A stretch of DNA of 39,360 nucleotides from an uncultured bacterium (GCA_903831305.1 CAIKXE010000007.1:1-39360); one strand, 5' to 3'. Shown: positions 2,785-15,854, numbered from the stretch's first letter. The notes: generated by a model from the sequence alone, not told the origin. A program made the numbers and translations.

Positions 2785-2985
2785 ATGAGTATGAGAAAAG
2801 ATTGGTCAAAATTATACAAGAAATATAAGGGGATGTGGGTGGCTTTGGCATCTGACGAAATGACCGTTCTTGGTGTAGGAAAAACGGTAAAAGAGGCCAT
2901 TTCCAAATCAACTAAAAAGAGTAAAGAAACCCCAATTCTTACAAGAATACCAGAAAATCTGGTTTCCTATGTAGGCTCACTATGA
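2785..2985 (+). CDS. Small hypothetical protein, DUF5678-like (possible antitoxin-like partner of the downstream protease)
   Basis: 66 aa. The pattern KYKGMWVALASDEMTVLGVGKTVKEAISKS resembles DUF5678-type small proteins (recalled, not verified). Its stop overlaps the next start (ATGA at 2982-2985). Confidence 0.5.
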   Translation: MSMRKDWSKLYKKYKGMWVALASDEMTVLGVGKTVKEAISKSTKKSKETPILTRIPENLVSYVGSL

Positions 2986-3380
2986 AATTTGATTACAAAC
3001 GATATGATACAAACACGCTCAGACCGGTGATACCGGTAAAATTGAAGAATAGTGAGACTAGTATTGGCTATGAGGTCTTGGTAGATTCCGGTGCTGATTT
3101 GTGTATCTTTGATGCTGAAATAGGCGAAGCACTTGGCCTTGACATAAGAAAAGGTAAGGTAAAAACAGTTTTTGGTGTTGGCGGAAAATCATCAGTTTAT
3201 TATTTGCATAATATAGAAATTGAGGTTGGTGGCTGGTCCTATAAAATTGAAGCTGGTTTTATGCTTGATGTCGCTGGAAGGGTTATGCCATTTGGACTCG
3301 TTGGACAAAAAGGTTTCTTTAATAATTTTATTGTAAAGTTTGATTTACTTAAAGAAGAAGTAGAATTAAAGAATAGATAA
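2982..3380 (+). CDS. Retropepsin-like (clan AA) single-domain aspartyl protease
   Basis: 132 aa. VLVDSGADLCIF contains the D-S/T-G-A catalytic motif. The size fits a homodimeric retropepsin-type fold. It is translationally coupled to 2785-2985. Confidence 0.7.
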   Translation: MKFDYKRYDTNTLRPVIPVKLKNSETSIGYEVLVDSGADLCIFDAEIGEALGLDIRKGKVKTVFGVGGKSSVYYLHNIEIEVGGWSYKIEAGFMLDVAGRVMPFGLVGQKGFFNNFIVKFDLLKEEVELKNR

Positions 3381-4611: not shown

Positions 4612-6228
4612 TTAAAGGCGGTCTGAGTTAATTTCTGGCGAGACTGCTAAGTCAAAATCAATCAAATATAGGCGGGGAAGGCGGGCAAAGTCAGGCTCGC
4701 CTTTTTCATTGCGGTAAAAGCGAAGGCAAAAGTTTCCGTCATGAATATGGCCATGATCAAATCCGAGATTCAGTATTGTTTCGGTTATCATATTTCTGGT
4801 TTCAATTAGCTGTTCCATAAATATGTATGTTTTGGCTAGCCAGTCTTTCAAACTTATGTCTAAAACTCCGGTATAAGCATCAACCATGCCGTCAGTCGCT
4901 AGTTTGTAAGATATTATAGGTTCGATGGGCACATAATCAAAATCTTGTTTTTGCCAAAGTGAATAATTTTCAAATAGTTTTTGCCAGGCCGAAAATGCTT
5001 GTGGCGTAATGTGGCGTATTATAGCTTGATCTTTTAATTCACCACCAAGTAGGGTAGTCTCCGAACCAGATTTACTAAAGCCTTGTCTAGAAAAAGTTTC
5101 AGCACTAATATTTTTTTTCCGATACAGTGGTGGTTTTATCAACTCACGCCCCAGGCCTTTCTCGAAGGCAAGAGTAAATAAGGCACGTTTTTTATCATAA
5201 GGGGCGTAGTCAATCATTTCAGCAGCCAGCCGTTGTATTTCTTGGCTTGGGTTGTCCAAGTTTGTCCTGATTAAGGAATCCTTTTCATCTAGATGGGCGT
5301 ACTGAACCATTTGCAGAGATATCATCTGTGTTTTTAAATCTGAGCTATTCAAACCAAGTTTAATTAATTTCCCGATTTCAGATAAGGAAGCATATTCAAT
5401 CATCCTAGCTGCGAGTCTCTGTATTTCAATATCGGGATTTGTAAGACCAAGCCGAATATAGCTGGAGCGTTCATCCTGTTTCAGATATTGGCAAAGACTC
5501 AACCCTAATTTTTGCTCGTTTTGATCCAAACTGTTTAAACAACCCATTATCTTTTCTCTAGCAATTTTACTAAAGATCTCTTTGTCTCGGTTTGATAAAT
5601 ATTTGAGAATTCCTGGAGTAATATTTTGTTTTTCCGTCTCAAAGTTTTCTAAATCCAGCTTTATTTTATTAGCGATATTTTCTCTTAGTCCCAGTCTGTC
5701 TTCCTCCGGGGTATAGGCTATCATTTCAGCATATTTTTCCCATTTCTCGCGGTCAGCTGTTTCGAGCCCGGTCTTTATTTTTTCAGCTACCAATTTTCTT
5801 AATTCCATTCGTTCATCATCTGAGGCTAAAACTACCATTTGTGCCGCTATTACTTGCGTTTCAACGTGAGTACTCTCTAGTCCTTGTCTAGTTTTTTCAC
5901 TGACTATCTTTCTAAGCCCATCTCCATCTTCCTCGGGAGCAAAGCAAATCATTCCTGCGGTGATTTTTTGTACTTCTATATCGGTATTATCAAGGCTTGT
6001 TCTTATAAGCTCCGCTCTTTTTTCTGATGGGGTATTTTTAATGGTATTTATCAGAGAATAGGGAGAGTTTGCGATAAAACCATCCAGGTCCTGTTTTTTG
6101 TCAGCTTGATAACGATCAAAAGAGTGCTTGTTAACTGGGTCCTGACCAGGGATTTCATACATTTTTAAATAGTCGGGGAGTTCACCTTCAATATCAGTAA
6201 ACTCTTTTTTTGTCTCGGTATTTTCCAT
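4612..6228 (-). CDS. HEAT-like repeat protein with C-terminal atypical kinase-like domain
   Basis: 538 aa with about 8 tandem 31-39-aa helical repeats (e.g. PDIEIQRLAARMIEYASLSEIGKLIKLGLNS and PSQEIQRLAAEMIDYAPYDKKRALF). The C-terminus has FDHGHIHDGNFCL (HxDxxxxN-type catalytic loop) and LYLIDFDLA (DFG-equivalent). Confidence 0.55.
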   Translation of the reverse strand: MENTETKKEFTDIEGELPDYLKMYEIPGQDPVNKHSFDRYQADKKQDLDGFIANSPYSLINTIKNTPSEKRAELIRTSLDNTDIEVQKITAGMICFAPEEDGDGLRKIVSEKTRQGLESTHVETQVIAAQMVVLASDDERMELRKLVAEKIKTGLETADREKWEKYAEMIAYTPEEDRLGLRENIANKIKLDLENFETEKQNITPGILKYLSNRDKEIFSKIAREKIMGCLNSLDQNEQKLGLSLCQYLKQDERSSYIRLGLTNPDIEIQRLAARMIEYASLSEIGKLIKLGLNSSDLKTQMISLQMVQYAHLDEKDSLIRTNLDNPSQEIQRLAAEMIDYAPYDKKRALFTLAFEKGLGRELIKPPLYRKKNISAETFSRQGFSKSGSETTLLGGELKDQAIIRHITPQAFSAWQKLFENYSLWQKQDFDYVPIEPIISYKLATDGMVDAYTGVLDISLKDWLAKTYIFMEQLIETRNMITETILNLGFDHGHIHDGNFCLRFYRNEKGEPDFARLPRLYLIDFDLAVSPEINSDRL

Positions 6229-9843: not shown

Positions 9844-11142
9844 ATGATAAAAGAAATATTTAAAAAATGCATCGTTAAAATACTAGAACTTGAGGCTAAG
9901 GCAATTATTAAGAAATATCGGCCTCGGATTATTGCCGTGACTGGGAGCGTGGGTAAAACCTCTACCAAGGATGCCATCTATTCCGTCATGGCAAAAAACT
10001 TTTATGCTCGAAAGAGTGAAAAAAGTTTTAATAGTGACATCGGTGTACCACTGACGGTTTTGGGTTGTAATAACGCTTGGCTGAATCCCCTAAAATGGTC
10101 CAAAAACATTTGGCAGGGAGTGGATTTGATTGTTTTCAAAAAGGCTTATCCCGAGTGGCTGGTGCTTGAGGTGGGGGCGGATCGGCCTGGGGATATAAAG
10201 AAGATTACCAAATGGCTCAAGCCAGATATTGTGGTGGTGACCAAGTTTGCTTCTGTACCGGTGCATATTGAGTATTTTAAATCTAAGGATGAAGTGATAG
10301 CGGAAAAAGGCAATCTGGTGACCGCACTCAAGCACGATGGAGTTTTGATATTAAACAGTGATGATGCGGATGTCTTTGCTTTCAAAAATAAAACGACTAA
10401 TAAAATAATTACTTACGGTATGATGGGTGATGCGGAGGTTCGAGCCACAAATTACTCTGTCTATTATAAGGAGGATACAGGGGAACCTTTTGGCGTCCAT
10501 TTCAAAGTGGAGTATGCTAATAATTGTTTACCCGTAAAAATAATTGGCACCTTGGGTTATAACAATATTTATTCAGCACTTGCGGCCCTAACAGTGGGCA
10601 TTAGTTTGGGCTTGAACTTGGTGGAGGCCACGGAAAATTTGTCTCGGCATATTGCTCCGCGAGGAAGGATGAATTTAGTTAAAGGTATAAAGCGCTCCAC
10701 CATTATTGATGATACTTATAATTCCTCACCGGTGGCGCTAAATTCTGCCCTGGAGACCTTGCGTGATCTAAAAACTAAATATCGAAAGATAGCGGTGCTC
10801 GGTGATATGATGGAGCTTGGAAAACACACCAGTGATGAGCATAAACAAGCTGGTATTCTAGCGGCCACCGCTTGTGATATGCTTGTGACCGTAGGTCTGC
10901 GAGCTAGGACTATTGCTGAGAGTGCTATTGATGCCGGTTTGGATGAAGATAGTATCTTGCAGTTTGATACCTCAGTGGAGGCGGGAAAATACATTAAAGA
11001 TATTTTGCAAGAAGGGGATGTTATCCTGGTGAAAGGTTCACAGTCTGTCCGAACGGAAAAAGTGGTTAAAGAAATTATGTTTGAAACTGAACGCTCGGCA
11101 GAACTTCTGGTCCGCCAGGAGCCAGAGTGGCTGGCGAAGTAA
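9844..11142 (+). CDS. murF: UDP-N-acetylmuramoyl-tripeptide--D-alanyl-D-alanine ligase MurF
   Basis: Mur ligase P-loop VTGSVGKTSTKD, DDTYNSSP, and C-terminal ILVKGSQSVRTEKVV. I prefer the ATG at 9844 over the TTG at 9823, which overlaps ftsI. Confidence 0.85.
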   Translation: MIKEIFKKCIVKILELEAKAIIKKYRPRIIAVTGSVGKTSTKDAIYSVMAKNFYARKSEKSFNSDIGVPLTVLGCNNAWLNPLKWSKNIWQGVDLIVFKKAYPEWLVLEVGADRPGDIKKITKWLKPDIVVVTKFASVPVHIEYFKSKDEVIAEKGNLVTALKHDGVLILNSDDADVFAFKNKTTNKIITYGMMGDAEVRATNYSVYYKEDTGEPFGVHFKVEYANNCLPVKIIGTLGYNNIYSALAALTVGISLGLNLVEATENLSRHIAPRGRMNLVKGIKRSTIIDDTYNSSPVALNSALETLRDLKTKYRKIAVLGDMMELGKHTSDEHKQAGILAATACDMLVTVGLRARTIAESAIDAGLDEDSILQFDTSVEAGKYIKDILQEGDVILVKGSQSVRTEKVVKEIMFETERSAELLVRQEPEWLAK

Positions 11143-11146
11143 AAAT

Positions 11147-11680
11147 ATGAAAATAATAATTTGCACGGAAAATGGAGCCAAGGTCAAAGCCGTGAAAGAG
11201 GTTTTGGAAAAAGTCTGGATAGATTTTTCCTTAGTTACGGAAAAGTTTTCCTCAGATATTGCTGAGCAACCGTTGTCCGAGGAGGAGGGGATAAAGGGAG
11301 CCATAAACCGAGCAAATAACGCTAGGTTAAAATATCCAGGTGCGGATTATTTTATTGGGATGGAGGGGTATGTGGATACAAATAATTATGGGATGTTTCT
11401 GGCGGGGATTGTGGTGATAATAAATAAAGCGGGAAAGATGGGTATTGGCTCTAGTGCCAAGATGCCACTGCCAGATTTTATTCAAAAGAAGATTGAAGCT
11501 GGGTTTGAACTTGGACCGGTGATAAAAGAACTAATGAATGATGAGGAAAATAATATTCGTCAATATGATGGGACTAACGGTTTATTATCTAAAGGTTTAT
11601 ACAATCGGGTGGATGAATTCAAAGATGCCACTAAATGTGCCTTAGCCCCTTTTAAGTCTCCGGAGTTTTATGAAAAATAA
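11147..11680 (+). CDS. Inosine/xanthosine triphosphatase (YjjX-like non-canonical NTPase)
   Basis: 177 aa from the internal ATG at 11147, just after the murF stop. MKIIICTENGAKVKAV.., SDIAEQPLSEEEGIKGAINRANNAR and ALAPF resemble YjjX/DUF84. Confidence 0.75.
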   Translation: MKIIICTENGAKVKAVKEVLEKVWIDFSLVTEKFSSDIAEQPLSEEEGIKGAINRANNARLKYPGADYFIGMEGYVDTNNYGMFLAGIVVIINKAGKMGIGSSAKMPLPDFIQKKIEAGFELGPVIKELMNDEENNIRQYDGTNGLLSKGLYNRVDEFKDATKCALAPFKSPEFYEK

Positions 11681-11693
11681 GTTAAAATAAAAA

Positions 11694-11719
11694 GAGTCAC
11701 CCGAGGGGTCGGGTGACTC
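11694..11719 (-). terminator. Intrinsic terminator for the 11746-11997 gene
   Basis: gagtcacccg/cgggtgactc 10-bp stem with a 6-nt loop. The A-rich run on the + side gives a T-run on the minus strand. Confidence 0.6.
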
Positions 11720-11745
11720 CTCGGGTGGTATGTTGTCCCTCTTCT

Positions 11746-11997
11746 TCACGTCTGACTGGCCAGCATCTCACAGCGGTGGATCTGGATGGCCTGGACCGTT
11801 CGACCAAGCTTCTCCGCCAGTATGCGGTCGCAGGGGTGGTTTGGGCTGATGATGAGTTGTTCGTCACCTATTGTCCAGTGACTTCTGGCGTTTTTCTGGT
11901 GGACTGCTCCTTTGCGGTAGTTGCGGGCCGAGGAGATCTGCCTTTTTCGTGGGTTATTATGTCGCCACTTTTTTTCAAATAAATATCTTCCGGCCAT
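11746..11997 (-). CDS. Small basic protein with SANT/Myb-like helix-turn-helix segment (GC-rich mini-gene)
   Basis: 83 aa from ATG 11995-11997, preceded by AAGGGAG. The N-terminus is basic. HWTIGDEQLII..DRILAEKLGRTVQAIQIHR fits a W..E..L / LGRT..A...R Myb-like pattern. It has its own promoter and terminator. Confidence 0.55.
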   Translation of the reverse strand: MAGRYLFEKKWRHNNPRKRQISSARNYRKGAVHQKNARSHWTIGDEQLIISPNHPCDRILAEKLGRTVQAIQIHRCEMLASQT

Positions 11998-12052
11998 TTT
12001 GACTCCCTTTTCTTCCATGCATAGAGAACTGTCTTGTCTATTTTCTATCCAG

Positions 12053-12081
12053 ACTATATATGTGTTTGTGGATATTGGCAA
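12053..12081 (-). promoter_or_regulatory. Sigma70-type promoter for 11746-11997
   Basis: On the minus strand: TTGCCA (12076-12081), 17-nt spacer, TATAGT (12053-12058). Confidence 0.5.
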
Positions 12082-12105
12082 GTTAAATAAATAAATAAAT
12101 AAGTT

Positions 12106-12133
12106 TTGATTTTTCTGTAAAAAATGTTATATT
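12106..12133 (+). promoter_or_regulatory. Candidate promoter for tRNA-Glu
   Basis: TTGATT (12106-12111), 16-nt spacer, TATATT (12128-12133), about 18 nt upstream of the tRNA. Confidence 0.4.
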
Positions 12134-12151
12134 CATTTTGTCGGAAATACT

Positions 12152-12223
12152 GGCCCTATCGTCTATCGGTTAGGACGGAGCCTTCTCAAGGCTCAAAGCG
12201 CAGTTCGATTCTGCGTAGGGTCA
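12152..12223 (+). tRNA. tRNA-Glu(CUC)
   Basis: Manual cloverleaf. Acceptor ggcccta/tagggtc (one G-U), D stem gtc/gac, anticodon stem gagcc/ggctc with loop ttCTCaa, 4-nt variable loop, T arm cgcag-ttcgatt-ctgcg, discriminator a. No encoded CCA. Confidence 0.9.
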
Positions 12224-12405
12224 CAAAATGAGGTCACGAATTTTGTGACCCTAAGTAAGCAAATGACTTTGCTTACGTCCAGAATCGAACGGCGGAGTAA
12301 ATTTTTTTAGCAGAAAAAATAACGAGCCGGTGCCTAGGCAAATTTGAGCGACGGCGAGAATTTAGCCGAAGGAGAATGGGTATTCCCGTTTCTGCGTAGG
12401 GTCAC
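12210..12405 (+). repeat. 196-nt direct repeat unit, copy 1 (starts inside the tRNA 3' end and ends with a second copy of that 3' end)
   Basis: Near-identical to 13247-13440. Contains perfect hairpins tagggtcacaaaat/attttgtgacccta (12216-12253) and gtaagcaaa/tttgcttac (12255-12276). Ends with ttctgcgtagggtcac (12390-12405), the same 16 nt as tRNA positions 12209-12224. Confidence 0.9.
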
Positions 12406-12454
12406 CGCGTCAAACGCGGTGTAGCACGTCAGACGTGCTCACCAAACAAAAACG

Positions 12455-12712
12455 ATGCATTATGTATACCTATTATTAAGTCTAAAAGATAATGGATTGT
12501 ATATTGGTTATACGAATGATTTGAAGAGAAGATTTGAGCAACATAATAAAGGATTATCTCTATCAACTAAATATCGCCTACCCTTTAAATTAGTTTTCTA
12601 TGAATGTTTTTCAAATTCAACAGACGCTCGTAGTAGAGAAAAATATTTAAAAAGTGGGTACGGCCGGCAACAGCTTAAAGACATATTAAAGAACACTTTT
12701 AATAAAGTATAG
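12455..12712 (+). CDS. Stand-alone GIY-YIG (URI-type) nuclease domain protein
   Basis: 85 aa. YVYLLLSLKDNGLYIGYTNDLKRRFEQHN carries the GIY..YIG..R..H/N core, and REKYLKSGYGR is typical of the short UPF0213-like family. No obvious SD sequence. Confidence 0.8.
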   Translation: MHYVYLLLSLKDNGLYIGYTNDLKRRFEQHNKGLSLSTKYRLPFKLVFYECFSNSTDARSREKYLKSGYGRQQLKDILKNTFNKV

Positions 12713-12770
12713 ATAATATTGTGGTTCACGCTATTTTGTTTGCGAAGCAACCTTATAATTTTGATGAAAA

Positions 12771-12808
12771 AATTTAGCCGAAGGAGAATGGGTATTCCTG
12801 TTTCTGCG
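12771..12808 (+). repeat. Partial third copy of the repeat-unit 3' end
   Basis: aatttagccgaaggagaatgggtattcctgtttctgcg matches 12359-12396 with 1 mismatch. It diverges at cacaatcac (versus tagggtcac). Confidence 0.8.
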
Positions 12809-12817
12809 CACAATCAC

Positions 12818-12846
12818 TTGACAAAGTATGATGATACATATATGAT
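12818..12846 (+). promoter_or_regulatory. Near-consensus sigma70 promoter for 12891-13127
   Basis: TTGACA (12818-12823), 17-nt spacer, TATGAT (12841-12846), directly abutting the partial repeat. Confidence 0.55.
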
Positions 12847-12890
12847 AGTGAATAGAAAAAGCCTCAACAAAATATAGAAAGGGGGCCCTT

Positions 12891-13127
12891 GTGACAAAGC
12901 GCGGAAACAGAACTGCGTATGGTATACCATTTATTTGGGACAACCATTGCTGGTGCACTGTGCCATCAGAGACGATGCAGAAGGTTCGTATCACCCCGTC
13001 CAAGATGGAAGGTGGCGCCTGGGCAGTATTTGATGCTCGAGGAGAGATGCACGAATTGATTGGTGAGGATGTGGAAAAAAGAGCCTTCGCAATCGCGGTG
13101 GCATTCGCTGAACAAAAGGAGCACTAG
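12891..13127 (+). CDS. Hypothetical small protein (GC-rich mini-gene, 78 aa)
   Basis: GTG start preceded by AAAGGGGG (5-nt spacing). Promoter upstream and terminator downstream. No recognisable domain. Confidence 0.5.
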   Translation: MTKRGNRTAYGIPFIWDNHCWCTVPSETMQKVRITPSKMEGGAWAVFDARGEMHELIGEDVEKRAFAIAVAFAEQKEH

Positions 13128-13147
13128 GGCAAGAACCTAGAATCGCA

Positions 13148-13182
13148 AACCCTACGGTAGCCAACCAGCACCGTGGGGTTTT
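13148..13182 (+). terminator. Intrinsic terminator
   Basis: aaccctacgg/ccgtggggtt 10-bp stem (one G-U) with a 13-nt loop, followed by tt..ttt. Confidence 0.5.
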
Positions 13183-13246
13183 AAACTTTAACAAATAATT
13201 TTGTTCCACCCTTTTACCATTGTCTCTAAAGTGTTCCATTCCAGAC

Positions 13247-13440
13247 TCTGTAGGGTCACAAAATGAGGTCACGAATTTTGTGACCCTAAGTAAGCAAATG
13301 ATTTTGCTTACGTCCAGAATCGAACGGCGGAGTAAATTTTTTTAGCAGAAAAAATAACGAGCCGGTGCCTAGGCAAATTTGAGCGACGGCGAGAATTTAG
13401 CCGAAGGAGAATGGGTATTCCCGTTTCTGCGTAGGGTCAC
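13247..13440 (+). repeat. Direct repeat unit, copy 2 (194 nt)
   Basis: Identical to 12210-12405 except for a CG deletion in the leading tRNA-end segment (tctgtagggtcac) and one substitution (c12267 versus t13302, in a hairpin loop). Ends with ttctgcgtagggtcac (13425-13440). Confidence 0.9.
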
Positions 13441-13543
13441 AAAAGCGGGTTTTTAGGCTATTGACAAACTTATAGTAATTTGCCACTCTTTGAGTAGAGA
13501 AAGAGTCATTTTTCTGAATCACGCGCTCAACCAGGAGAAGGGT

Positions 13544-13744
13544 ATGAAGTACAAAGTGTGGGTATGCAAGATCGTAGTCGCAGAAGGTGAGAAAACACCT
13601 CCGGGATTTGACTCGGAATTGCGCACAGCAGCTGTCAGTGTGGTAGAGAGCCGTGGTGTTCAGGTTCTGTCATGTGCCAGTGGCTGGTATGAAGAGCCAG
13701 CCCAGACACTGGACGACATCACCCTCGGCTCTGAAGTATCGTAA
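13544..13744 (+). CDS. Hypothetical small protein (GC-rich mini-gene, 66 aa)
   Basis: ATG at 13544 preceded by AGGAGAAGGG. A strong terminator follows immediately. I prefer this ATG over the RBS-less start at 13490. No recognisable domain. Confidence 0.5.
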   Translation: MKYKVWVCKIVVAEGEKTPPGFDSELRTAAVSVVESRGVQVLSCASGWYEEPAQTLDDITLGSEVS

Positions 13745-13797
13745 ACCGCCTCACGTGGCAAGGAATTCCGCCTTGCATACGTGAGGCGGTTTTCTTT
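13743..13797 (+). terminator. Strong intrinsic terminator
   Basis: aaaccgcctcacgt/acgtgaggcggttt 14-bp stem with an inner ggcaagg/ccttgc helix, followed by a T-run. Confidence 0.7.
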
Positions 13798-13842
13798 AAT
13801 GTTTCATCTCAGATCTTGTAAACTCACAAAATGAGGTAATTG

Positions 13843-13876
13843 AAAAGACGCTCGAGCAGGGGCCCGAGCGTCTTTG
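13843..13876 (-). terminator. Intrinsic terminator for 13894-14163
   Basis: aaagacgctcg/cgagcgtcttt 11-bp stem. On the minus strand it is followed by TTTT. Confidence 0.5.
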
Positions 13877-13893
13877 TGGTGAGGGCGGCTTGC

Positions 13894-14163
13894 TCAGTCC
13901 TTGAAGGGACTGCGAGCCGCCGCGATTTGCTCCTCCGTGTAGCGGGGGAGCCGGGGCAGAGGGCGGGTCAGGTGGCGCTCTGTAGCTGCCACTCTGGCTC
14001 GTGCCGCTCCGTGTTGGCCGAGAGTTTGGCAGATGCCACGGTACTCGCCTTCTCCTCCGCCGAACTCCGTGCAGGCCACGGCAGCCGCATACGGAGCAGC
14101 TACGTGCCGCTCTCGCATCACGGCGGCAGCCCTCGCGGTCATTTTCTCAACTTGGGTTGGCAT
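13894..14163 (-). CDS. Hypothetical Ala/Arg-rich small protein (GC-rich mini-gene, 89 aa)
   Basis: ATG preceded by AAGGAG (9-nt spacing). Consensus promoter upstream and terminator downstream, all on the minus strand. Visibly above 60% GC. Confidence 0.55.
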   Translation of the reverse strand: MPTQVEKMTARAAAVMRERHVAAPYAAAVACTEFGGGEGEYRGICQTLGQHGAARARVAATERHLTRPLPRLPRYTEEQIAAARSPFKD

Positions 14164-14214
14164 GGGTCATTACTCCTTTAGTTTACCCCGCAACTCCAAT
14201 ACAATCTACATAGT

Positions 14215-14244
14215 ATTATAACGCACTTAATAGCCTTTTGTCAA
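14215..14244 (-). promoter_or_regulatory. Consensus sigma70 promoter for 13894-14163
   Basis: On the minus strand: TTGACA (14239-14244), 17/18-nt spacer, TATAAT (14215-14220). Confidence 0.55.
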
Positions 14245-14260
14245 GCTCTTAAAATACGGC

Positions 14261-14716
14261 TTATTTAAATAGTTCTTCTACCACCGCCTTCACATCATCA
14301 CCATTGGCCATTCCCTTAAATTCCTTCATCAAGGCTCCCATAAATTTACCCATACCGGCTTTGTCTGTGACATTTAGTTCCTCTTTTTTGGCCACTGCCA
14401 CTTTTTTGATTTCCTCCCGGCTCATCATCTGCGGTAAAAAAGACTCTAGGATTTTTAATTCGGCCGCTTCGTTTGCCACCAGGTCTAGTCTGTTACCTTT
14501 GGTGAATTGATCAATAGAATCTTTTCTTTGTTTGACCGCTCTTTTAATCACGGCAATGGCTTCATCATCTGTCAGTTCTTCTTGTGGCATCCGGCTGGTG
14601 GCCACTAACTCATTTGTAAAAGCAGATACTAACCCGCGAGTTACTAATAGCTTAAGGGCATCTCTTGCTAGCATAGCCTCTTTAACTTTATTTCGCATTT
14701 CTTGTTGTATGGACAT
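14261..14716 (-). CDS. yqeY: GatB/YqeY domain-containing protein
   Basis: 151 aa. Full-length resemblance to the YqeY family (..KEAMLARDALKL.., ..AVKQRKDSIDQF.., ..FLPQMMSREEI..). Confidence 0.85.
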   Translation of the reverse strand: MSIQQEMRNKVKEAMLARDALKLLVTRGLVSAFTNELVATSRMPQEELTDDEAIAVIKRAVKQRKDSIDQFTKGNRLDLVANEAAELKILESFLPQMMSREEIKKVAVAKKEELNVTDKAGMGKFMGALMKEFKGMANGDDVKAVVEELFK

Positions 14717-14774
14717 ATTTTTATGTTTAATTAATATATTTCTATTTTAGCACACAATATGGTAAAATGTCAGC

Positions 14775-15854
14775 ATGCAAATCATTTTAATAGTAATCTT
14801 GACTTTGGTTCTCGTCGCTCTCGTGGTTCTTATTTGGCTTAATATTAAAAACAAGAAACCTGAGGAAATCAAGAAGGATGATACCGGTTTGAATCTCATT
14901 TTACAGCAGATCAACGAGCTGAATCGCACGGTGGATAATAAGATGTCTGAGTCTTCCCGGAATATGAATGATTCTATTCGTAACCAGTTCAGTGAATCCG
15001 CCAAGTTGATCAAGGATGTGACCCAAGGCTTGACCAAGCTCGATGAGACGAACAAGCAAGTGGTTTCCTTTGCGGATCAGCTACAGTCCTTGCAAGATAT
15101 TTTGAAAAATCCTAAACAACGGGGGATACTCGGGGAGTATTATCTGGAGACTTTACTTAAAAACGTCTTGCCACCTGGCAGTTTTGAGATGCAATATAAG
15201 CTAGGGAAAGATGAAGAGGGTAATGACTTGATTCCGGATGCCGTAGTCTTTGTGAAAGAGAAAATCATCCCCGTGGACTCCAAGTTTTCTTTGGAAAATT
15301 ATAATAAAATAATTGAGCAAAAGGATCCGGTGGAAAAAGAAAAGCTGGAGAAACTGTTTGTAAATGATTTGAAGAATAGGATCGTGGAGACATCTAAATA
15401 TATTCAGCCGGGCAAAGGGACCATGGATTTTGCTTTTATGTTCATCCCGCATGAGGCTATTTATTATGATTTGTTGATTAACAAGATCGGGGCTTTGAAG
15501 GAGGAGACAGAAAGTTTGATCCAGCGTGCGGCCTCTAAATATAAAGTGATTATTGTCTCGCCAACTTCTTTCCTAGCTTATTTGCAGACGGTCTTGCAAG
15601 GGCTGAAAGCGATGCAGATTGAAGAATCAGCCAAGGATATAGTCAAGCGGGTGGGAGAACTCACGGTTCATTTGAAAAAGTATGCTGAGAAATATGACAA
15701 ACTGGGTAAGTCCTTAGTAACCGTGGTGAATCAATATTCAGAAGGATCTAAAGAATTTAAAAAGATTGATAAAGATATTGTGCGCATTACGGAAGGTGAA
15801 CAGGCCTTGGGCTATGAACCACTGGAGCTAGAAAAACCAGAAATGGAGGAATAG
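14775..15854 (+). CDS. rmuC: DNA recombination protein RmuC
   Basis: 359 aa with an N-terminal TM and a coiled coil. RGILGEYYLETLL, PDAVVF..IPVDSKF and FMFIPHEAIY are RmuC hallmarks. Confidence 0.9.
   Translation: MQIILIVILTLVLVALVVLIWLNIKNKKPEEIKKDDTGLNLILQQINELNRTVDNKMSESSRNMNDSIRNQFSESAKLIKDVTQGLTKLDETNKQVVSFADQLQSLQDILKNPKQRGILGEYYLETLLKNVLPPGSFEMQYKLGKDEEGNDLIPDAVVFVKEKIIPVDSKFSLENYNKIIEQKDPVEKEKLEKLFVNDLKNRIVETSKYIQPGKGTMDFAFMFIPHEAIYYDLLINKIGALKEETESLIQRAASKYKVIIVSPTSFLAYLQTVLQGLKAMQIEESAKDIVKRVGELTVHLKKYAEKYDKLGKSLVTVVNQYSEGSKEFKKIDKDIVRITEGEQALGYEPLELEKPEMEE

Follow-up and report, generated by a model that had tools for sequence, protein, structure and literature searches.

A structured element behind a tRNA-Glu gene may seed a cassette array by re-creating its docking site

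An array of small cassettes lies behind the tRNA-Glu(CTC) gene in a 39,360-nt stretch of DNA from an uncultured bacterium (GCA_903831305.1 CAIKXE010000007.1:1-39360; this whole stretch is called the window below). The array is bounded throughout by copies of the tRNA 3′ end and holds two copies of a folded, non-coding unit, which we call the X-L element. We propose, at a probability of about 0.55, that this structured element seeds the cassette array by re-creating the docking site behind the tRNA: the element ends in a fresh tRNA end, so that every insertion would re-create the attachment site of tRNA-targeting integrative elements. In the mechanism that we envisage, a unit inserted between tRNA-Glu(CTC) and a two-hairpin linker followed by a GIY-YIG nuclease gene and duplicated the 16-nt tRNA end, a step that comparison with relatives shows. 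Cassettes composed of a promoter, an open reading frame (ORF) and a terminator, with decayed tRNA ends, would then have accreted together with a second unit, probably by site-specific recombination at the tRNA-end copies catalysed in trans. Recombination between the 191-202-nt unit repeats would finally remove 1,035 bp, comprising the GIY-YIG gene, a cassette with a 78-aa ORF and one unit.

The 16-nt end of the tRNA gene (TTCTGCGTAGGGTCAC) is present in exactly three copies, at 12209, 12390 and 13425, as a preliminary description of this DNA had claimed, against a chance expectation of 0.14 even with three mismatches allowed. The duplication of a 196-nt unit reported there is equally real. Positions 12204-12405 and 13239-13440 align without gaps at 97% identity with a spacing of 1,035 nt, and BLAST delimits a 191-nt repeat at 99.5% with one substitution in the loop of hairpin 2 (12263 C; T in copy B). 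The 38-mer of the junctions occurs at 12359, 12771 (one mismatch) and 13394, where 0.00 copies are expected, in agreement with the third, shortened copy of the unit noted earlier. A CG-deleted copy of the tRNA end (13247-13259) and a half copy (12801-12808) are present as described, and the 14-mer TCACAAAATGAGGT, found at 12221 and 13256, does return at 13824, at the far edge of the last cargo. Taken over the array, tRNA-end copies stand at all cassette boundaries, three of them exact 16-mers and four degenerate (Table 1).

Repeats of this kind might come from collapsed or chimeric reads, as the preliminary description had allowed, and the assemblies L003, L116 and L117 (L numbers designate the loci compared here) do break within the repeat. 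The array is nevertheless not an assembly artefact, because the same 4 kb are 100% identical in at least seven contigs assembled independently from other samples and with different assemblers (L001, L002, L116, L118, L119, L123 and L124). A shorter form in L115 was assembled cleanly, and the same architecture recurs in dozens of unrelated contigs, which leaves an artefact with a vanishing probability.

The X-L element is an uncatalogued, non-coding unit of ~165-180 nt located directly 3′ of tRNA genes of Patescibacteria. Read on the tRNA strand, its 5′ part is a hairpin, often a bidirectional terminator, with an outer stem that begins within the acceptor 3′ strand of the tRNA. There follow a reverse-complemented acceptor 3′ strand, hairpin 2, and a reverse-complemented T-stem 3′ strand and T-loop; the 3′ part opens with a conserved multi-helix domain, may include a hairpin 5, and closes with the 3′ strands of T-stem and acceptor copied in direct orientation. 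In unit A, the copy next to tRNA-Glu, the inverted copy of trailer and acceptor 3′ strand occupies 12240-12253, hairpin 2 12255-12276, the inverted copy of T-stem 3′ strand and T-loop 12280-12294, and the conserved multi-helix domain ~12290-12375, ahead of hairpin 5 and the direct core copy at 12390-12405. The segments that match the target thus flank hairpin 2 and recur as the 3′ direct copy.

These arms agree with the tRNA beside which they stand. Complementarity between the inverted copy and the adjoining tRNA is 91.7% over 21 nt (55 units); the direct copy is free of mismatches for a median of 15 nt (maximum 22 nt) and frequently extends into the trailer. The apparently invariant AATCGAAC proves to be complementary to the local T-loop, with which it varies: TTCGAAT of tRNA-Ser is answered by ATTCGAA, TTCGACT of Arg-CCG by AGTCGAA, and TTCAAGT of Val and Leu by ACTTGAA. 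In L025, L094 and L099 the direct copy has diverged from the tRNA, and it is the tRNA that the inverted copy tracks. The earlier view of the unit needs dividing: the junctions are indeed copies of the tRNA 3′ end, but the unit is more than a junction or an attP scar and belongs to a conserved, covarying family with ends matched to the local tRNA.

Covariation was assessed in a MAFFT alignment of 25 units, which has 36 invariant columns, most of them outside the predicted helices. The RNAalifold consensus on this alignment comprises 39 pairs, 32 of which (32/39) show compensatory double changes. A covariance model built from the same alignment finds 86 units in the examined loci; once aligned to the model, these have 95.5% of cells paired, compared with 40-45% in slid controls, and all pairs (39/39) show double changes, this alignment being fitted to the model and the plain MAFFT alignment forming the independent evidence. 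Within the window the model recognises exactly two full units (12241-12405 and 13276-13440), both with a score of 148 bits. The window unit has a minimum free energy of -59 kcal/mol (z=-4.0), and its closing stem, GUGACCCUA/UAGGGUCAC, is formed by the inverted and direct tRNA-end copies. An excess of G:U over A:C pairs in the units (85 vs 30) favours the tRNA-sense strand as the folded strand and would be an indirect sign of transcription. By the criterion of compensatory change, the X-L unit is a new structured RNA family with a putative transcript.

No Rfam 15 family matches the unit in the window or in four typical loci, in either gathering or E-value mode; the matches are otherwise tRNAs. 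The freshwater-2 motif (RF02980) reaches 25.3 bits (E=0.32) and 19.1 bits, below its gathering threshold of 49.9, and has no match at E<=1 in L045, L086, L089 and L099. The likeness is weak and covers hairpin 1, hairpin 2 and the ATCGAAC stretch, but the motif spans the first half of the unit only, and we rejected it. Four further candidates were set aside for their anatomy alone: a tmRNA or permuted tmRNA (ARAGORN is negative and there is no tag ORF); a retron (no reverse transcriptase is adjacent, and that of the window is a component of a diversity-generating retroelement, DGR); a group I or II intron (no Rfam match, and the unit is too small); and a palindrome-associated transposable element of IS200/IS605 type, with which duplications of 15-22 nt are inconsistent. 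Full-text literature searches returned no description of such an element, and the X-L unit is an abundant structured element that appears undescribed.

The first homologues came from relatives at 50-60% MurE identity (L009, L032, L025, L014 and L031), where tRNA-Glu is followed by a homologous unit of ~170-190 nt that ends in that genome's own tRNA end, a sequence unlike that of the window. One pattern scan of JGI metagenome contigs gave 76 loci, including ~12 GC-rich coding false positives; in ~52 of the true matches the unit lies 30-190 nt downstream of a tRNA on the same strand, and 14 isoacceptors are represented. Unit homologues are now placed at over 60 loci in metagenomes and metagenome-assembled genomes (MAGs), beside at least 14 tRNA species. 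The commonest hosts are Glu-TTC, Arg-TCT, Trp, Lys-TTT, Arg-CCT, Glu-CTC and Arg-GCG; units were also found behind Leu, His, Gly, two Gln species, Ser and Val. Central domains that diverge by only 2-7% stand beside at least five tRNA species (Glu, Lys, Gly, Arg and Gln) with matching arms that are unlike. Distant subtypes form weaker members of the superfamily, "type 2" (L005, L017, L041, L111) and "type 3" (L014, L049, L092), and are frequently in tandem with type 1. At L089, two identical 176-nt units follow tRNA-Ser(TGA) in tandem (5838-6197), with an inverted arm, ATTCGAAC, that matches the tRNA-Ser T-loop TTCGAAT, and two more units occupy the opposite strand of the same 2-kb stretch.

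Such matching could be read in another way, as the mark of a nucleic-acid-guided mobile element. The 5′ inverted segments would guide the unit to the tRNA 3′ half, the 3′ direct copy would pair with the other strand or prime synthesis, and the domain would be a scaffold for a trans-encoded enzyme of the bridge-RNA, omega-RNA or target-primed reverse-transcription type, with new tRNA targets reached through a changed or re-templated guide. Several observations accord with this: the inverted copy follows the local tRNA through its T-loop variants and into the trailer, the central domains are near identical at different tRNAs where the target-matching flanks differ, the scaffold is strongly structured with its 36 invariant positions (25 sequences), and so many tRNA identities are hard to explain by protein-only site recognition. 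The window also encodes a reverse transcriptase, though that of a DGR. Yet no associated enzyme gene lies within 3.2 kb in any locus, no guide-RNA family of Rfam matches, and the mismatches between inverted copy and tRNA (17 wobble-compatible against 10 incompatible transitions) are not clearly wobble-biased. Hairpin 2, moreover, differs between near-identical copies, which is unexpected if whole units moved recently. We regard guided insertion as an improbable explanation, and it is with corresponding reserve that the X-L unit might be called a programmable, protein-less (non-autonomous) tRNA-homing element of a new class, an analogue of the bridge-RNA or omega-RNA systems, whose folded RNA or single-stranded DNA would pair over ~21 nt with the 3′ half of a tRNA gene and which would insert beside that gene and regenerate its end.

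The bridge RNAs or seekRNAs of IS110/IS1111 and the omega RNAs or reRNAs of IscB/TnpB are structured molecules of ~150-200 nt, specified at element ends and equipped with target-matching segments. The X-L unit differs in the length of its matches (~21 nt inverted, ~15 nt direct), which address both strands of the same target, and no DEDD recombinase, TnpB or IscB gene was found near the units (within 3.2 kb, and among the scanned window ORFs).

That the unit is an insertion is shown by the neighbourhood of the GIY-YIG gene. Close homologues of the nuclease (71-83% identity) are encoded directly after tRNA-Glu in relatives: after tRNA-Glu(CTC) in the same MurE...RmuC locus of L127, and after tRNA-Glu(TTC) in L125 and L126. 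In these three loci the tRNA end is followed immediately by CGCGTCAAACGCGG TGTAGCACGTCTGACGTGCTCAC and then by the GIY-YIG gene, and in L128 the two hairpins are retained with compensatory changes beside a decayed tRNA end. In the window the hairpins (12406-12442) follow the terminal core of unit A, not the tRNA. Since they follow the tRNA directly in L127, L125 and L126, unit A, as judged from this synteny, was inserted cleanly (181 nt) behind tRNA-Glu, ahead of the conserved partner, and the 16-nt tRNA end was duplicated. The hairpins and the GIY-YIG gene had been taken for cargo; they are not foreign, and in relatives they form the conserved partner on the downstream side of tRNA-Glu. At its right end (12720-12752) the segment is likewise homologous in L005 (TGTGGCTCAC GCTATTCTGAATGCAAAGCATACC), L127 and L125. 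The spans of tRNA-Glu end, hairpins and GIY-YIG gene are 12406-12712 in the window, 2953-3264 in L127, 1532-1865 in L125 and 2949-3252 in L128. The interval from tRNA to gene shows no evident promoter, which suggests either a putative tRNA-mRNA co-transcript or that the GIY-YIG gene may itself be a cassette.

The GIY-YIG protein has 423 homologues, and the few matches that name a source are, with one exception, from Patescibacteria MAGs. One could suppose that it is a free-standing homing endonuclease that cuts the tRNA-Glu 3′ end and drags in neighbouring DNA by repair. The gene and its two hairpins do stand directly after tRNA-Glu of two isoacceptors, and in L128 beside a decayed end, and the segment is bounded by tRNA-end-like repeats. 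The protein, however, is the catalytic domain alone, 85 aa without a DNA-binding domain, and the model for group I intron endonucleases gives 20.5 bits against a cut-off of 56. Nor was a GIY-YIG gene present in the other unit-bearing loci searched (L004-L114), so that it fails as a general partner of the unit, and a short haplotype without the gene retains both unit and cassette. We consider a homing origin highly improbable.

Beyond the window, the homology of related contigs stops exactly at the terminal core in three pairs (L111/L009, L043/L100 and L087/L099). Relatives differ at the orthologous tRNA-Glu locus, where the unit may be of type 1 or type 3, reduced to a fragment or missing altogether, and tandem as well as truncated unit copies exist. 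These observations bear on a further alternative, in which the unit is a resident cis-acting RNA or DNA that serves the tRNA, through termination or insulation, 3′-end processing or control of its 3′ half. Here the tRNA 3′ half would have been duplicated and inverted in place to give the unit, with gene conversion keeping the two in match, and the window array would be a duplication plus unrelated small insertions. In most copies a hairpin resembling a bidirectional terminator does separate the tRNA from the inverted copy, the folded strand is tRNA-sense, units at orthologous tRNAs partly cluster by tRNA identity (Arg-CCT and Arg-TCT groups), the flanking genes are housekeeping genes, and repair may homogenise palindromic arms and direct repeats without mobility. 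Against a resident role speak the clean insertion in the window with its 16-nt duplication relative to L127 and L125, the patchy occurrence with different subtypes at the same orthologous tRNA-Glu, the tandem identical and truncated copies, and the breaks of synteny exactly at the terminal core. An inverted copy would also sequester the acceptor strand of the tRNA, which is hard to fit with a helper role. We regard a resident structure as improbable.

The array itself varies between samples. In L115, tRNA-Glu is followed by one unit with the diagnostic base of copy A and then directly by the cassette with the 66-aa ORF; this contig equals the window minus 12406-13440 and is shorter by 1,035 bp, that is, by exactly one period of the repeat. 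The long and short haplotypes come from different samples, and gene tables contain one contig with the 66-aa ORF 1,035 nt nearer to the upstream gene. The presence/absence variation that the preliminary description had asked for is thus found. The short haplotype is, however, no empty site waiting for the Campbell-type integration suggested there: with the GIY-YIG gene native to this place in relatives, it most probably arose when homologous recombination between the 191-202-nt unit copies deleted the interval. From the conserved partnership of GIY-YIG gene and tRNA-Glu in relatives we infer that the long haplotype would be the older state, the direction of change being drawn from synteny. The haplotype breakpoint falls inside the 191-nt repeat, so that the polymorphism fits homologous recombination as well as it fits excision of a tRNA-targeting element.

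The cargo between the tRNA-end copies consists mainly of autonomous mini-genes (Table 1). Cassette 2, with its TTGACA promoter, 78-aa ORF and terminator, is as previously described; for cassette 3 the 66-aa ORF and the terminator, which a promoter/terminator scan also places at 13768-13789, were recovered, but the TTGACA at 13461 has no canonical -10 in that scan. The array extends beyond the earlier description to cassette 4, the upstream GC-rich cassette and the degenerate tRNA-end copy at 12720-12729. Among 5.8 billion proteins the 78-aa ORF has no homologue except a truncated version of itself, and the small cassette ORFs, which fall into species-specific clusters, belong to no family of Pfam, NCBIfam or PHROG. 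GC content of the cassettes with the 78-aa, 66-aa and two 89-aa ORFs is ~0.50, against ~0.42 in the host.

Table 1 Features of the array in the window, with strand and supporting evidence.
Feature	Position	Strand	Details
Upstream GC-rich cassette	11691-12081	-	promoter 12081-12053, 89-aa Myb/SANT-like ORF 11746-12015, terminator 11722-11691
tRNA-Glu(CTC)	12152-12224	+	ARAGORN; Rfam tRNA 52.5 bits; last 16 nt (12209-12224) are the reiterated core
Unit A (X-L element)	12225-12405	+	covariance model 148 bits, E=3e-41
Two hairpins, CGCGTCAAACGCGG and TGTAGCACGTCAGACGTGCTCAC	12406-12442	+	conserved linker from tRNA-Glu 3′ end to GIY-YIG gene
GIY-YIG nuclease gene, 85 aa, AT-rich like host	12455-12712	+	Pfam PF01541, 2.1e-17, residues 1-71
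Degenerate core TGTGGTTCAC (12720-12729), then conserved hairpin GCTATTTTGTTTGCGAAGCAACC	12720-12752	+	right end of GIY-YIG segment
5′-truncated unit fragment (last 38 nt, half core at end)	12771-12808	+	
Cassette 2	12809-13224	+	TTGACA-17-TATGAT promoter 12818-12846, 78-aa orphan ORF 12891-13127, terminator-like hairpin ~13150-13183
R1, right end of cassette 2: pseudo-T-arm and tRNA-end copy (…GTTCCATTCCAGACTCTG TAGGGTCAC)	13225-13259	+	
Unit B, second X-L element	13260-13440	+	covariance model 148 bits; one substitution vs unit A
Cassette 3	13441-13792	+	TTGACA 13461, 66-aa orphan ORF 13544-13744, terminator 13743-13792
R2: decayed tRNA-end copy and 14-mer TCACAAAATGAGGT	13793-13837	+	junction with native tRNA trailer
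Cassette 4	13844-14255	-	12/12 consensus promoter 14244-14215, 89-aa GC-rich orphan ORF 13894-14163, bidirectional terminator 13844-13875

Cassette ends in L005 and L032 share 93-96% identity with R1 although the tRNA ends of those genomes are different, so that R belongs to the cassettes and not to the host; R2 is 73% identical to R1. Cassette 3 starts with 15 nt that resemble the start of a type-2 unit (AAAAGCGGGTTTTTA; compare L017 and L111). The native tRNA trailer and terminator of L004 have their homologue at 13824-13880. That locus also has the promoter of cassette 4 next to yqeY, but with an unrelated 81-aa ORF, and in place of the upstream cassette, which is absent, it has a different GC-rich ORF. 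On both sides of the tRNA in the window (11691-12081 and 13844-14255) stand GC-rich orphan cassettes whose promoters are near consensus and which have terminators, and a promoter-like site lies 5′ of tRNA-Glu at 12106-12133. In L018, L021 and L022 a consensus TTGACA promoter begins 2-8 nt past the tRNA-Glu end and is followed by a short ORF for a small hydrophobic peptide; promoter-led mini-genes at tRNA ends seem common in the clade. The same array design with other cargo is found in L005, L032 and L073.

Phage "morons" are units of promoter, ORF and terminator. The cassettes with the 78-aa, 66-aa and two 89-aa ORFs resemble them as autonomous units with a GC content unlike that of the host, but they stand in a bacterial chromosome beside a tRNA and have no similarity to phage DNA or PHROGs.

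In agreement with the preliminary description, which had recorded no recombinase in the array, the scanned window ORFs (the array's ORFs and the majority of the larger ones) contain no integrase or transposase domain. A trans-acting candidate of the large serine kind does exist in the clade: in L073 a 513-aa enzyme of this type (Resolvase, Recombinase and Zn-ribbon domains) abuts tRNA-Glu(TTC). Its gene takes the last ~13 codons, at the C-terminus, from the antisense of that tRNA. Downstream of the recombinase the contig continues with an 8-kb island, then a degenerate tRNA end, a hairpin and an X-L unit whose core is exact over 17 nt; a cassette with a TTGACA promoter and five 84-nt R-type ends come next, ahead of native downstream sequence as in L052, which has the unit only. 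The island encodes PIN, HATPase, hydrolase and Ogr/Delta-like proteins, and each of the five 84-nt repeats closes with the tRNA end; the stretches concerned are 10759-12335 and 100-4400 of L073. The earlier proposal, in which elements insert serially at a tRNA attachment site through a recombinase in trans, is retained in part. The tRNA-end junctions, the shared design in relatives, the L073 recombinase and the presence/absence variation stand with it; what had been said of the unit, the GIY-YIG gene and the short haplotype is corrected.

Several findings weigh against the proposal that the X-L element seeds the array by re-creating the docking site. A large serine recombinase was found in L073 only among the examined loci, for which reason it was rejected as a general partner of the unit, and there it sits between the tRNA and the unit, not at the unit's core. 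When ORFs of at least 60 aa within 3.2 kb of ~60 units were clustered, no conserved protein gene emerged near the units; the clusters are housekeeping families and spurious ORFs that cross the unit. No circular or excised unit junction was observed, and the order of events in the window's array is not uniquely reconstructable. Site-specific recombination explains the direct repeats and their stacking, but not the inverted copy or the folded domain, and it leaves the conservation of a ~100-nt unit domain with 36 invariant positions unexplained. The near-identical central domains with divergent hairpin 2 and flanks could, finally, reflect gene conversion among resident copies instead of recent transposition.

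Integrative mobile elements exploiting Xer (IMEX), as in the CTX/TLC/RS1 arrays, use the host Xer recombinases at dif and have no recombinase of their own; the target is regenerated, which leads to tandem stacking, and a folded hairpin can mimic the target. The array of the window would resemble them in stacking without a recombinase of its own, by target regeneration, but the target is a tRNA 3′ end and not dif, and no Xer-type site was recognised. With integrons it shares small single-gene cassettes between structured palindromic sites that fold as single strands, and a plastic order. It differs from them in that there is no IntI/attI/Pc platform next to the array and no integrase domain in the scanned ORFs, in that the cassettes bring their own promoters and terminators, and in that the junctions are copies of the tRNA 3′ end and not attC, the attC consensus not having been searched for.

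Closer parallels are offered by the tycheposons of Prochlorococcus, which have partial tRNA copies at their borders and form tandem arrays, in which serial integration at the same tRNA pushes older elements outward; their islands hold many remnants and extra partial tRNAs, and their integrases are tyrosine or large serine recombinases, according to the passages of the account considered here (bioRxiv 10.1101/2020.12.28.424599). The reiterated tRNA ends of the window and the large serine recombinase at the tRNA-Glu end of L073 recall what these passages describe. The cassettes of the window, in contrast, are tiny (~0.2-0.6 kb), carry their own promoter and terminator, and the array has no integrase within it or nearby; the commonest "cassette" is a structured, non-coding element with an inverted tRNA half, a feature absent from those passages. 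The array appears to be a variant on the theme of tRNA-anchored islands, with the structured element as its undescribed part.

The window is a Patescibacteria (candidate phyla radiation, CPR) chromosome and not a phage. It carries a dcw cluster (MraZ, RsmH, FtsL, PBP, MurE) together with MetK, YqeY, RmuC, RRF, MreB, UvrA/C, Ddl, RpoB/C, DnaG and sigma-70, and the nearest relatives by MurE are Patescibacteria MAGs at <=80% identity in data with one genome per species. The exact junction motif has no match (0) in GTDB, one genome per species, so that the species of the window is either not a representative genome or has a representative without the variant. A phage or prophage origin of the array was rejected: megablast of 11000-15000 against 50,697 phage records gave no match, and four motif scans found the unit and junction motifs absent from 2.9 million viral contigs. 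The PHROGs search of the array ORFs returned weak GIY-YIG matches and a weak transcription-regulator match to the upstream 89-aa ORF. No tRNAs or units lie within 10 kb past the right end of the window; on the left, contigs reach ~285 nt past its end. The position of tRNA-Glu(CTC) downstream of MurE is kept in synteny across the clade, and its orientation flips among genomes: across L004-L033 some relatives have it on the strand of the neighbouring MurE, others on the opposite one, which points to repeated inversion of the locus, possibly between inverted tRNA-end copies.

Some neighbouring features deserve record. A complete DGR occupies 30-2744 of the window, with a target gene at 30-893 that holds the variable repeat (VR) at 759-902, a template repeat (TR) at 1189-1332, a bAvd gene on the minus strand (~1325-1750) and the reverse transcriptase at 1743-2744 (RVT_1, 8e-24); all 13 TR/VR mismatches (13/13) fall at TR adenines. 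On the 3′ side of the reverse transcriptase, an unusually AT-rich region (2785-3380; GC 0.30) holds two small ORFs, encoding a 66-aa DUF5678-like protein and a 132-aa retropepsin-like aspartyl protease (Asp_protease_2, 1.5e-6). Between metK and mraZ, a 538-aa ORF on the minus strand (4612-6228) has no Pfam match and is kept in all contigs of the species. Roughly 4 kb past the right end of the window, contig L120 has a PemK-family toxin gene (14572-14964) directly after gyrB, followed by two very large ORFs (735 aa and >1,800 aa) without a Pfam match.

Patescibacteria have tiny genomes with few recognisable mobile elements and a variable gene content. The 3′ ends of tRNA genes, as accretion points for cassettes of promoter, gene and terminator, would be one route to such variation. 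The covariation support of the unit matches that of curated RNA families, yet the unit is absent from Rfam 15, and it is therefore a new RNA family to describe. If its arms do act as guides, this would mean a new target-programmable mechanism of insertion and an enzyme still to be found. Even without a guiding role, the element explains recurrent assembly breaks and strain-level insertions and deletions beside the tRNA genes of the CPR.

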